From positions 13,292-77,291 of the IMG/VR virus record IMGVR_UViG_3300032053_000040: a DNA stretch of 64,000 bases; one strand, given 5' to 3'. Under the pieces are notes generated by a model. It did no database searches and had not been told where the DNA came from. It was given only the letters and a program-made list of their open reading frames with translations. The translations under genes were made by a program, and so were the position numbers. Source of the DNA: a virus. Numbering within the stretch: the stretch's first letter is position 1; every line of letters starts with the position of its first letter. This document shows positions 27,302 through 34,685 of the stretch, one piece after another.

Positions 27302-27388
27302 GCCGCTTTAGCTCAGGTAGGCCAGAGCGCCCGGCCTGTACTGAATCAGGAAACCGGAAGATCGCCGGTTCGACTCCGGCAAGCGGCT
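27302..27388 (+). tRNA. tRNA-Thr(UGU) with a 12-nt intron at 37/38
   Basis: Acceptor GCCGCTT/AAGCGGC, U73, D stem GCTC/GAGC, T arm GCCGG-TTCGACT-CCGGC; bulge-helix motif CCTG/CAGG with TAC and AAA bulges. Confidence 0.75.
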
Positions 27389-28436: not shown

Positions 28437-29390
28437 TTGGATACTGACGCCAAAGGTCGTTTCCAAAATGGAAACAAACAGTTTACCAAGCAGAAACGTG
28501 ACTCTTTAGGACATTTTTTGTCGGCGAAAGCGCCGCTTGGTAACGGTTCCGATAGAAAGAAATTCTCTAAAAAAGAAGTTGAGTCGGCGATCAAACTCAT
28601 CGAGAACTCCGGCTATTTTGTAACCAAAACCCCCCTCCAGCAGGGGTACACATTCGACCTCGACATCGATCCGGTGAAGGGCAAGACATACAAGATCGGC
28701 TGCGTCTCGGACACTCACCTCGGGTCCAAGTACCAACAGCTCAAGAGCCTCCATCGGTTCTACAAGCACTGCGCAGACGAGGGCATAACCACGATCCTCC
28801 ATGCCGGCGACATATGCGACGGCATGTTTGTCTATAAAGGCCACGAGTTCGAGGTCTTCCGACATGGTGCAGACGAGATCTGCGAGTACGTTTGCCAGAA
28901 CTATCCAGACTATGGGATAACGACCGAGCTTCTCTGCGGCAACCACGATGAGTCTCTATATCGGCGTTCCGGGATGGACATAGGCGAAGCAATAAGCAAT
29001 AAGAGGAAAGACATAATCCACAGAGGATTTCATAGCGCAAATTTCCTCGTGGGCGACTTGAAGATAGCACTGCACCACGGAATCGGTGGAACGGCCTACG
29101 CCAGATCATATAAGTGTCAGAAGCTTGCAGAGGCACACGTTGAGGACGATCCCGCAGAAGCCGCCAGGATCATAATACTCGGTCATTACCACTGTTCATG
29201 TATCCTTCCCGACTACATGAAATTTTTTATGGTACAAATGGGATGTTTCCAGGCACAAACGAGTCTCGGCCGGCGCCTGGGCCGCATCCCCGATATAGCC
29301 GGCATAATCCTGGAGTTCAAAGGTGGCAGATCATTCAGCGTGCCTAAGTGTACCTATCTCAAGTACGATAGCGTAAAGGAGGACTACTAA
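28437..29390 (+). CDS. Calcineurin-like metallophosphoesterase
   Basis: SDTH, HAGDICDG, GNHD, HHG and GHYH motifs. Confidence 0.9.
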   Translation: MDTDAKGRFQNGNKQFTKQKRDSLGHFLSAKAPLGNGSDRKKFSKKEVESAIKLIENSGYFVTKTPLQQGYTFDLDIDPVKGKTYKIGCVSDTHLGSKYQQLKSLHRFYKHCADEGITTILHAGDICDGMFVYKGHEFEVFRHGADEICEYVCQNYPDYGITTELLCGNHDESLYRRSGMDIGEAISNKRKDIIHRGFHSANFLVGDLKIALHHGIGGTAYARSYKCQKLAEAHVEDDPAEAARIIILGHYHCSCILPDYMKFFMVQMGCFQAQTSLGRRLGRIPDIAGIILEFKGGRSFSVPKCTYLKYDSVKEDY

Positions 29391-29655
29391 GTTCAGGCCA
29401 AGTCTGCTTTGATTTTCCCCAGTTGGTACACGATACTTAACACGGGAGCAAGGTTGGTGTCTCAACCGGGGGTCTCCATTATAAAAAAATATCTAGCGAT
29501 CTCGTTTAAAATCGATTTTAAGACACTTTTTTTCATCCCCCCACCTCCAATTACCTTTTCTGATTTTTCATGGCCTTAAATCAGATTTAAATGAACCCAT
29601 AGCGGCGACTGTGTTTTAGCACCAAAACGCAACAGTTTCCATCTGATTCTGAGAT

Positions 29656-29968
29656 AGAACGATCATCAGAAAACTGTCAACTACCCCACCCTGAAGGATG
29701 TGGCTTGCGACTACGCAAAAAGTCGTGTCGCTATCGGCTGGTTGACTCCAGATGGCGAATCCTGGGATTATTCCGGCAGCCTGCTTTGGACGGAGAGCTT
29801 GACGCCGTTAAGTGGTTAAGTCGTTTCTGCTTAACTCGGCCCAGATCCTTGCGGATCTCATGCCTTCCAAAGCGATTGATTTCCGTTCACCGTCTCTCTT
29901 CGGTTGTCCGAAGTGCCCTACCTTCTTGCGAAGGCGGAAATCTGTTTCCTGGCCTGTTACCAGGGAAC
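29656..29968 (-). ncRNA. omega-RNA-like structured RNA with a putative 3' guide
   Basis: Minus-strand TTAATATA promoter at 29992-29999; nested helices with GCAA tetraloops; GTCAAC/GTTGAC terminal pairing. Confidence 0.6.
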
Positions 29969-30075
29969 TATAGAGATATTATGCTTAATGGTATATTAAG
30001 GTATTTGCGGCAACGGTGGGGCCAATTCATCCCCGCCCTGAAGGATGGGGTCTTCTTGGACACGGAGAGAAAACT
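29676..30075 (-). mobile_element. Non-autonomous IS200/IS605-family element (400 bp, no tnpA or tnpB)
   Basis: Two related subterminal hairpins CCCCACCCTGAAGGATGTGG and CCCCGCCCTGAAGGATGGGG; minus strand ends GGGGTAGTTGAC and starts immediately 3' of TTTAT. Confidence 0.8.
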
Positions 30076-30170
30076 ATAAATACCTACCATGTATATATAT
30101 CATAACCAATCATTTTATCCCCTAATAGGTTGGGGGATAGGTTGGCTAAAAAGGAGGCGAAAAGGCGATG
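30068..30170 (+). repeat. 103-bp duplicated promoter/leader/SD, copy 1
   Basis: Matches 34583..34685 except one base; BRE-TATA (GAAAACTATAAATA), leader hairpin, AAGGAGG, ATG. Confidence 0.95.
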
Positions 30171-30371
30171 AAATACCAGGTTGAGGTCCAGACTGTAAGG
30201 GGTCTCAAATTCAGCGGGAAAGTAGAGGTTGACATCCCACCAAGTAGAGGCGTAAAGCTCCCCGGATTCAGAAGCGCGATTCCGGTCAAGACCTTGAGGG
30301 CCATAAAGAGCCAGGCCAAAATACAGCTCGGCGAGGAGATCAGGGCCTTCCGAGTTCTGGACGTGGTCTGA
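30168..30371 (+). CDS. Small basic hypothetical protein (first gene of early operon 1)
   Basis: Follows the duplicated promoter and SD. Confidence 0.65.
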   Translation: MKYQVEVQTVRGLKFSGKVEVDIPPSRGVKLPGFRSAIPVKTLRAIKSQAKIQLGEEIRAFRVLDVV

Positions 30372-30372
30372 G

Positions 30373-30645
30373 ATGAGCCTGATAGACGGGGAGGAGTTCG
30401 ATTACCTTGGAACAAATGAGGATGCCAAGGCAGGAGATCTCGAATTAATTGCAGAGGCTCTTAGCGAACTCATGGACAAGGCTAAGGAGATAGTCGATGG
30501 AACCAACGAGGAAGACTACTTCAAAGGTTACATCCTGGGCAACTTCGATTCCGACAGGTATGGATTCCTCGGAAAAGGAGTCATGGACTCATTCCGAGAG
30601 GTGATAACGAGGCTGGAAAACGACGGCATGGAGCCGGCCGAGTGA
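30373..30645 (+). CDS. Small acidic hypothetical protein
   Basis: Operon-style spacing, D/E-rich. Confidence 0.6.
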   Translation: MSLIDGEEFDYLGTNEDAKAGDLELIAEALSELMDKAKEIVDGTNEEDYFKGYILGNFDSDRYGFLGKGVMDSFREVITRLENDGMEPAE

Positions 30646-34582: not shown

Positions 34583-34685
34583 AGAAAACTATAAATACCT
34601 ACCATGTATATATATCATAACCAATCATTTTATCCCCTAATAGGTGGGGGGATAGGTTGGCTAAAAAGGAGGCGAAAAGGCGATG
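34583..34685 (+). repeat. 103-bp duplicated promoter/leader/SD, copy 2
   Basis: Near-identical to 30068..30170. Confidence 0.95.

Follow-up and report, generated by a model that had tools for sequence, protein, structure and literature searches.

A protein-less IS200/IS605 element with an omega-RNA-like gene in a virus of a probable Methanothrix-type host

Introduction

Palindrome-associated transposable elements (PATEs) were defined in 2011, first in Haloquadratum walsbyi, and the IS200/IS605 kind of transposition makes no target duplication (PMC3119063). One PATE is transcribed in Halobacterium (PMC4615843), and the PATEs of Geobacillus often encode omega-RNAs that must be used in trans (Meers et al., PMC10055086). 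In OMEGA systems, stand-alone omega-RNAs can be used in trans by effectors that are compatible with them (Altae-Tran 2021, summarised in PMC10691335). Protein-less omega-RNA elements are thus already published. Here, we describe a 392-bp protein-less element located at positions 29676–30067 (minus strand) of a 64,000-nt stretch of viral DNA. This stretch, called the window below, corresponds to bases 13292–77291 of the IMG/VR virus record IMGVR_UViG_3300032053_000040, which is 77,291 bp long and has direct terminal repeats.

We consider it probable that this is a non-autonomous element of the IS200/IS605 family (IS1341 group), of the PATE or stand-alone omega-RNA kind, belonging to a lineage of Methanotrichaceae genomes and their viruses. 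The element carries an RNA of ~300 nt that is under strong selection for its fold. As judged from alignments, the last ~110 nt of this RNA are homologous to a part of the tnpB-bearing elements, namely their 3′ end and right end, and the 5′ domain of ~200 nt, with seven helices, appears to be present only in protein-less elements.

Like the PATEs, the element is too short for a transposase, has IS605-type palindromes near both ends and no inverted terminal repeats, and would be mobilised in trans. It also shares with them the 4–6-nt target on the left and the spacer that is longer on the left than on the right, and its right end has the UUCA loop noted for IS1341-type ends. Unlike many haloarchaeal PATEs, which are fused ends or plain deletion products, this lineage carries, with a putative promoter of its own, the ~300-nt RNA, two thirds of which have no counterpart in tnpB elements. 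It further differs in having a DUF7557 gene in about half of the family and in its home, the Methanotrichaceae and their viruses. With the stand-alone omega-RNAs of OMEGA systems it has in common a mobilised guide-RNA locus without effector or transposase, effector-bearing loci in the same genomes and a guide that would come from the outside flank. The function in trans is demonstrated for those RNAs and only putative here, and the RNA of our element has the extra 5′ domain and what looks like a dedicated archaeal promoter.

Results

Ends and boundaries of the element

The element is located between a plus-strand gene block, which ends near 29579, and an early-looking operon, the first gene of which has its ATG at 30168. 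The original prediction, made from the letters of the window, had described hairpins of the IS605 type at both ends, and these were borne out. The core hairpin motif has two matches in the window versus 0.01 expected, and the subterminal hairpins at 29684–29703 and 30031–30050, 20 nt each, are 90% alike and stand in direct orientation. Both ends also align to an element of another viral contig (L086), the right end with 89% identity over 38 nt and the left end with 88% identity over 40 nt. The TnpB of the L086 element has 353 aa, and Pfam assigns the domains Cas12f1-like_TNB and OrfB_IS605 to it. Since the tnpB strand of L086 corresponds to the minus strand of the window, the left end of our element is at the high coordinate and the right end is at 29676, and the top strand in the IS200/IS605 sense is the minus strand of the window.

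The boundaries were set by homology to ~20 independent insertions and to tnpB-bearing elements. More than 30 copies have flanks that diverge directly past GTAGTTGAC, which places the right-end boundary at 29676. The left end (30018–30067, minus strand) contains the subterminal hairpin CCCCATCC-TTCA-GGGCGGGG, flanked by AAGAAGACC and GATGAAT. In the ~20 independent insertions, the left end starts mostly with CTC (CTCG, CTCT or CTCC) and is preceded by TTTAT, rarely by ATTAT or TTTAC. The closest left end, that of locus L310, reads TTTAT|CTCGTTGGGCCAAGAAGACC, and the window reads TTTAT-AGTTTTCT-CTCCGTGTCCAAGAAGACC. As the homologous left end of L310 starts with CTC, the left end in the window was placed at 30067, which makes the element proper 392 bp long. 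The length of exactly 400 bp proposed earlier is the sum of this element and an 8-bp repeat at 30068–30075. The target motif TTTAT (30076–30080, minus strand; ATAAA on the plus strand) lies within the TATA region of an early promoter. Its proposed role as the target of the family, and as the transposon-adjacent motif (TAM), was upheld by the independent insertions, nearly all of which have TTTAT, or else a one-base variant, 5′ of the left end.

The mobility of the family is seen from the occurrence of the same element at different sites, with flanks that differ on both sides, in viral contigs, metagenomes and Methanotrichaceae genomes. One copy is nested in a tnpB gene (L262). At this locus (L262:1950-3400), and also at L264, the protein-less RNA element replaces most of a tnpB of the 350-aa type, and downstream of it lies the RNA of a second protein-less lineage with the C-terminal trace RVSHPYATRLFA.

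Absence of protein genes

No TnpA or TnpB coding remnant was found inside the element, as tblastn with two TnpBs gave only noise (E>0.2), and a decayed tnpB was rejected on this ground. A plus-strand open reading frame (ORF) of 124 aa was likewise rejected as a protein gene, since it matches no Pfam family and its frame is not kept in relatives; in general, the open frames of the element are not conserved across 15 homologues. The element is thus protein-less, as had been predicted, while its ends match those of tnpB elements. The accompanying claim that even a C-terminal remnant of TnpB is missing holds for coding genes but has to be amended for a tiny trace on the minus strand, ...VNQPIATRLFA*, which compares with ...VNQPIVAD* and ...VSPPDATRLFA* of TnpB proteins. 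This trace lies within the conserved 3′ module of the RNA.

Fold of the RNA

The single sequence of the window folds modestly better than its shuffles (z = -3.3), and the strong evidence for the fold is comparative. An alignment of 15 homologues was used, in which the others are 64–82% identical to the window copy and full of compensatory changes; all full-length homologues sit in elements of 405–606 bp, measured from left end to right end. RNAalifold gave 81 pairs for these homologues, and compensatory double changes were seen at 50 of these pairs. When the terminal stem is included as a pseudoknot, the structure has 87 pairs, 50 of which show double changes, and 96.8% of the cells form standard pairs. 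In a control, in which the 3′ partners were slid by 1–3 columns, only 30–42% of the cells were paired and 5–13 pairs had double changes, and none of 500 shuffles equalled any of the observed pairing measures.

Every helix listed in the original prediction was found to be present and covarying, although one of them covaries in distant homologues only. This is the stem GTCAAC/GTTGAC, which is invariant in the 15-sequence set and has compensatory changes in L364 (GTAAAC/GTTTAC) and L258 (GTCACC/GGTGAC). It forms helix 11 (profile positions 286–291 with 351–356) and crosses helix 8 (GGCYG/CRGCC; 232–236 with 292–296), which gives a pseudoknot next to the guide. Helix 8 covaries at the pairs 234–294 and 235–293. 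In addition, two loops of the GNRA type are conserved, and the single-stranded stretches GGUAGGGCACU and AGACGGUGAACG are invariant among the 15 homologues. A covariance model of helices 2–7 (R1, 160 positions) scores 161.5 bits on the 5′ domain of the window.

These data bear on the question of whether the window copy is a dead relic, that is, a decayed and immobile transposon fragment with an RNA that does not work, which we regard as very improbable. Such a state could be read from the single copy in the 77-kb virus, from the absence of the stretch GGGGTCAAGGGG, which most relatives have in their left ends, and from a 17-nt deletion in the RNA. Excision might be impeded by the 8 bp that separate TTTAT from the left end, and the copy is identical in two further related contigs (L247 and L330), so no recent movement is seen. 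The RNA of the window nevertheless keeps 81 of the 87 consensus pairs, which is in the range of the other homologues (80–87), and its R1 score is high. Moreover, the short form of the left end is shared with the closest relative, L310, which is inserted elsewhere, so this form is mobile.

The element is also present at the same site in a related contig, 93–98% identical, of a sister virus (G001). At its end (L247:11506-11613; L257), the contig of the sister virus also holds a second member of the family, which belongs to another subfamily, has the opposite orientation and is cut off by the contig end.

The RNA would be transcribed from the minus strand and end at the right end of the element, as originally proposed, so that the flank would become a 3′ guide. 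The TATA box noticed at 29992–29999 (minus strand) was found again as the A/T-rich box TTAATATA, located ~22 nt upstream of AGTTCCCTGG, where the RNA would start, and at the same position in the homologues. We infer that this putative archaeal TATA box acts as the promoter of the RNA gene. Among RNA sequencing runs, none was listed as containing the stretch.

Comparison with HEARO and omega-RNA models had been suggested as a check, and in this comparison no known family was matched. An Rfam search of the whole window at gathering thresholds found only a tRNA, and a search up to E 10 over 29300–30400 gave only chance matches, with no HEARO, IS605-orfB, HgcC, group I intron or ribozyme among them. 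The element thereby differs from the IStrons, which combine a group I intron with an IS605-type element (PMC10690162), in spite of the large structured RNA, the IS200/IS605 ends and the omega-RNA region that both have. Since the start of the RNA seems to be set by an internal promoter of the element, there would also be no 5′ exon to splice, unlike in IStrons. The tRNA gene found by Rfam is located at 27302–27388 (47.3 bits); it may hold an intron, because the match spans 87 nt compared with the 71 positions of the model.

Two parts of the RNA

The RNA consists of two parts. The 3′ module (29676–29781, minus strand) is built like an omega-RNA scaffold: its GGCUG/CAGCC and GUCAAC/GUUGAC helices cross each other, and it contains a hairpin that is invariant, GCGACACGAC-UUUUU-GCGUAGUCGC, as well as the UUCA hairpin of the right end. 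The 5′ domain (29782–29969, minus strand) is supported by covariation and comprises helix 1 and two three-way junctions (helices 2–4 and 5–7) with conserved GNRA-type loops. In the nhmmer searches, the tnpB lineage of 404 aa matched only positions ~208–323 of the RNA profile and the lineage of 350–360 aa only ~244–323, and the profile was matched end to end in ORF-less elements and not in tnpB loci. Because the tnpB elements share only the 3′ part, the last third of the RNA can be taken as an omega-RNA-like scaffold and the first two thirds as a lineage-specific domain.

We also considered that the 5′ domain might be hidden in the coding sequence of tnpB. With an E-value limit of 1, R1 had no match in 129 other sources totalling 0.8 Mb, namely tnpB genes of both lineages, tnpA loci, the tnpB of the virus itself and diverse elements with the same right end; a highly diverged copy might be lost at the default filters of Infernal. 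When 11 tnpB 3′ regions of the 350–360-aa lineage were folded to a consensus, conserved structure was seen only in the last ~120 nt, and the 5′ domain was not found there.

The likeness to the omega-RNA (reRNA) of IS1341-type TnpB elements (L086 and L139, 350–360 aa, TTTAT; L268, 404 aa, TTCAA) is therefore confined to the 3′ ~70–110 nt, which lie on the same strand, end at the right-end boundary and include the strand pairing with the terminal GUUGAC, the penultimate hairpin and the right-end hairpin. In contrast to these RNAs, ours is not overlapped by a tnpB ORF, its presumed promoter would replace transcription from within tnpB, and its 5′ domain is undetectable in tnpB genes.

Short sequences of the 3′ module were used for the search of further relatives. 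A 25-mer of the penultimate hairpin found 8 viral loci, and a 23-mer of it found 103 metagenome loci, which comprise full tnpB genes and short ORF-less elements. The tnpB class found in this way consists of ~400-aa genes, the last codons of which (...ATRLFA*) run into the hairpin. A right-end 22-mer (the hairpin and GTAGTTGAC) is present at more than 120 loci of bacterial and archaeal genomes, including Methanothrix/Methanosaeta and Methanoculleus. A hairpin pattern of 14 bases lacked specificity in viral sequences, where most of the 120 loci that it matched were due to chance.

Of 61 genomes of the Methanotrichaceae, to which the Methanosaeta metagenome-assembled genome (MAG) behind L139 belongs, 15 have R1 matches, with 1–3 copies each; none was found in 150 other sampled genomes of the phylum. 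The genomic copies are again complete small elements. From this distribution, the host of the virus is probably of the Methanothrix type.

About half of the protein-less family carries a divergent ORF of the DUF7557 family. In L259:8259-8396, L263:1402-1542 and L300:1159-1299, it encodes 45–46 aa on the opposite strand and is located in the interval from the left end to the promoter of the RNA. The Pfam match was above the cut-off in two of three copies tested, and the protein weakly resembles ribbon-helix-helix proteins and VapB antitoxins. The gene is absent from the window copy and from 6 other subfamilies.

The 5′ domain fits the alternative wording of the original prediction, a new structured RNA class mobilised by IS605 ends, in that it is absent from all TnpB-bearing relatives searched. 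Taken as an explanation of the whole element, this would mean that a new functional RNA merely rides on IS605 ends, for example as a decoy soaking up TnpB or TnpA, a regulator or a ribozyme. In this case, the 5′ domain, with its DUF7557 partner in half of the family, would need no TnpB, and the omega-like 3′ part would be kept mainly for the transposition signals that overlap it in the DNA. We think this rather unlikely. The failure of R1 in all 129 sources, the restriction of conserved structure in the tnpB relatives to the last ~120 nt, the lack of an Rfam match, the invariant GGUAGGGCACU and AGACGGUGAACG with the two kept GNRA-type loops, and the divergently linked 45-aa DUF7557 ORF speak for it, as does the GGGCAC motif that recurs in the distant protein-less loci L263, L258 and L292. 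In addition, 7 of the 15 RNA-positive genomes have no close TnpB of either related lineage. On the other hand, the part adjacent to the guide is homologous to tnpB elements and its pseudoknot helices covary, which is not explained by selection on DNA hairpins alone. All RNA-positive genomes checked hold several TnpB genes, stand-alone omega-RNAs are known to work in trans (PMC10691335), and the DUF7557 gene is dispensable, as the copies without it demonstrate.

A related possibility concerns the 5′ domain only. This domain might be a new structured RNA with a job of its own. It could stand in for a protein partner, or attract one, and thereby let the guide operate with an effector that is minimal or of another type; it could also be a decoy against TnpB or TnpA that viruses carry. 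We treat this as a doubtful proposal; if it were true, the element would be more than a parasite of TnpB.

Nucleases and transposases in reach

If the RNA is a guide RNA used in trans, as we favour, the nuclease would have to come from the virus or from the host. The virus encodes a TnpB of its own (L266; G000:C1:1059-2270) at bases 1059–2270 of the record, outside the window. The gene is intact-looking (403 aa) and lies between structural-looking genes. Its product is 31% identical to the L086 TnpB and belongs to another subfamily, and the right-end hairpin, CCCCTTTAGGGG, differs.

Among the tnpB lineages related to the element, the 350–360-aa one (L086, L139/L400 and L305) has the same form of the left end and the same TTTAT, and by these features it is the best candidate for the cognate nuclease. 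The 404-aa lineage shares the 23-mer, but its left end differs and its target motif is TTCAA. It is a parallel lineage, in which 404-aa TnpB elements stand beside protein-less relatives of their own (L292, L318 and L350; further loci are L390, L267 and L322), and the hairpin proximal to the right end is common to both lineages. The genome behind L377/L388 carries the RNA together with a 404-aa TnpB. One Methanotrichaceae genome (G049) has many copies of a 404-aa tnpB with 88% identity, most of them listed with one internal TAA, which could be a shared pseudogenising mutation or a case of read-through.

A TnpB of the TTTAT-type 350–360-aa lineage is present in 10 of the 61 genomes, namely in 5 of 15 RNA-positive and 5 of 46 RNA-negative ones (p=0.10); for either close TnpB lineage the numbers are 8 of 15 and 9 of 46 (p=0.02), with p-values that are corrected neither for relatedness nor for incomplete MAGs. 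A Y1 TnpA was found in all five RNA-positive genomes checked for it, and five out of five further RNA-positive genomes contain TnpB-family genes, several each. One tnpA–tnpB element has a left end of the same AAGACC-hairpin-GATGAAT form. Hence, the term orphan used in the original prediction is correct with regard to the element, which has no effector, and only relative otherwise, as the virus encodes a TnpB and the genomes of the host family hold TnpBs with the same left end and TAM.

The would-be guide and the viral promoters

According to the position of the guide in TnpB systems (PMC10691335), the flank that would be transcribed as a 3′ guide is AGUUUUCUGAUGAUCG... at 29656–29675 (minus strand), and the would-be guide reads AGTTTTCTGATGATCG. 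It contains a UUUU run at guide positions 3–6, which could act as an archaeal terminator.

The guide was originally said to resemble the early promoters of the virus, and the matches are indeed real at both promoter copies: TTTAT followed by AGTTTTCT occurs at each of them. The match at copy 1, 8 nt long, is the 8-bp repeat at the insertion site of the element itself. At copy 2, the match is first 9 nt long and, after three mismatches (guide positions 10–12), continues, so that 13 of 16 positions agree. As the two promoters are 99% identical over 103 nt, the match at copy 2 reflects, as far as the sequences tell, their paralogy.

A role in which the stand-alone guide recruits a host TnpB or a nuclease-dead TnpB to the duplicated early promoters for their regulation has been proposed on the basis of these matches. 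TnpB-derived RNA-guided repressors do exist (PMC10705468), and TTTAT with AGTTTTCT at both copies and the 13 matching positions at copy 2 speak for such a role. We nevertheless regard it as extremely improbable, because the copy-1 match is the insertion site itself with its 8-bp repeat and the copy-2 match comes from paralogy and is broken at guide positions 10–12. The cleavage by TnpB tolerates TAM-proximal mismatches poorly. All other members of the family (~20 insertions) have unrelated flanks, and thus unrelated guides, so promoter targeting is not a property of the family; a dead TnpB linked to the element was not found either. Nothing points to a regulation of the viral promoters by a dead TnpB. 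In the sequences compared, the only perfect target is the element-free form of this very site, which agrees with homing and retention rather than with promoter regulation, and this logic is standard for TnpB elements (PMC10055086). Of the orphan omega-RNA reading, the protein-less IS605 element, the minus-strand RNA and the TTTAT TAM thus stand, and the promoter regulation does not.

The 8-bp repeat

The 8 bp that separate TTTAT from the left end (30068–30075, AGAAAACT) repeat 29668–29675 in direct orientation and form a putative B recognition element (BRE) of the early promoter. Among ~20 other insertions compared, no copy shows such a repeat, and a target-site duplication is missing in every one of them; only the window copy is flanked by AGAAAACT, unlike the PATEs, which make no target duplication. 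A transposon of the DDE-type miniature inverted-repeat kind, with target duplication as a family trait, was rejected in view of these ~20 copies without duplication and the lack of inverted terminal repeats.

The 8-mer is also the exact start of the 103-nt promoter-leader repeat (30068–30170 compared with 34583–34685), which heads two different gene blocks. Upstream of it, there is weak homology between CGATTCAC of promoter copy 2 and the left flank of the element, CGATCATC. Because of this resemblance, the ancestral site may be written as ...CGATCATCAGAAAACT|ATAAATACC... Read on the opposite strand, the TATA region of the early promoter is the target TTTAT.

Two origins of the repeat can be suggested. 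A plain insertion would move the A-rich element (the putative BRE) away from the early operon's TATA box, and the survivor would be a rare derivative with the 8-mer back beside the TATA box, the repeat being specific to this insertion. The second route would need two steps: the element would land after a near-cognate TTTCT, be excised from the upstream TTTAT together with 8 extra bases and then be re-inserted. The repeat has probably been kept since it brings the putative BRE back beside the operon's TATA box. With promoter copy 2 as the donor, simple gene conversion would not account for the 8-mer as a replacement, since the left end beside it is complete.

An empty site, CATCAGAAAACT|ATAAATACC, had been suggested as a check. 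In an exact 22-mer scan of the viral contigs, only promoter copy 2 of the sister contig matched. Among the contigs of four sediment runs, none joins across the element, and they break at its ends, where the depth rises. Neither an empty nor an intermediate form of the site was found in the viral contigs and the four sediment runs. In these runs, the contig depth over the right-end hairpin (window 29671–29731) is 5–20 times that of the flanks; therefore, those sediments hold many elements with the same right end.

Discussion

The reading that we favour can be put as a sequence of steps. A host Y1 TnpA would move the element in trans by peel-and-paste. The RNA would be made from the element's own TATA box, run over the right end and take the flank as its guide; the predicted transcript starts at the conserved AGUUCC and ends 16–25 nt past GUAGUUGAC. 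A TnpB with a TTTAT TAM, supplied in trans and possibly of the 350–360-aa lineage, would load this RNA, and the complex would cut element-free copies of the site (TTTAT followed by AGTTTTCTGATGATCG). Repair from an occupied genome would then restore or spread the element, which amounts to homing or retention. The occupied site would be protected because its identity to the guide stops after 8 nt. The 200-nt 5′ domain would be an addition specific to the lineage, which may make the RNA more stable or a better competitor for the nuclease.

Several points weigh against this mechanism. The promoter, the 3′ end of the RNA and the length of the guide are predictions, and the binding of this RNA by TnpB is putative. 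Two thirds of the RNA appear to have no counterpart in tnpB elements, and therefore a role that does not involve TnpB is possible. The RNA of the window is without 17 nt that 13 of the 14 other homologues carry in full (the remaining one, L274, is without 9 of them), and the UUUU run might end transcription early. The 8-bp repeat is not a product expected of IS200/IS605 transposition. The TnpB of the virus is of another subfamily with a different right-end hairpin, and the co-occurrence of the RNA with close TnpB relatives is weak (5/15 vs. 5/46 and 8/15 vs. 9/46).

What appears new in this lineage is the large covarying 5′ domain absent from the nuclease-bearing relatives, the putative dedicated promoter, the DUF7557 gene in about half of the members, the restriction to Methanotrichaceae among the genomes sampled, the further copies in viral contigs and, for the present copy, the 8-bp repeat. 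In annotation, the locus should be labelled as a non-autonomous IS200/IS605 element with an omega-RNA-like gene and not as a viral regulator.

With TTTAT as their target, elements of this family would tend to land in archaeal TATA boxes, and in the present virus the insertion may have been tolerated only together with the 8-bp repeat that restores the upstream promoter element. More generally, the lineage suggests that derivatives of TnpB transposons reduced to a guide RNA can persist as separate, long-lived lineages in methanogens and in viruses of methanogens. It would allow a study of the features by which a guide RNA competes for a nuclease provided in trans, and a test of homing between co-infecting archaeal viruses.

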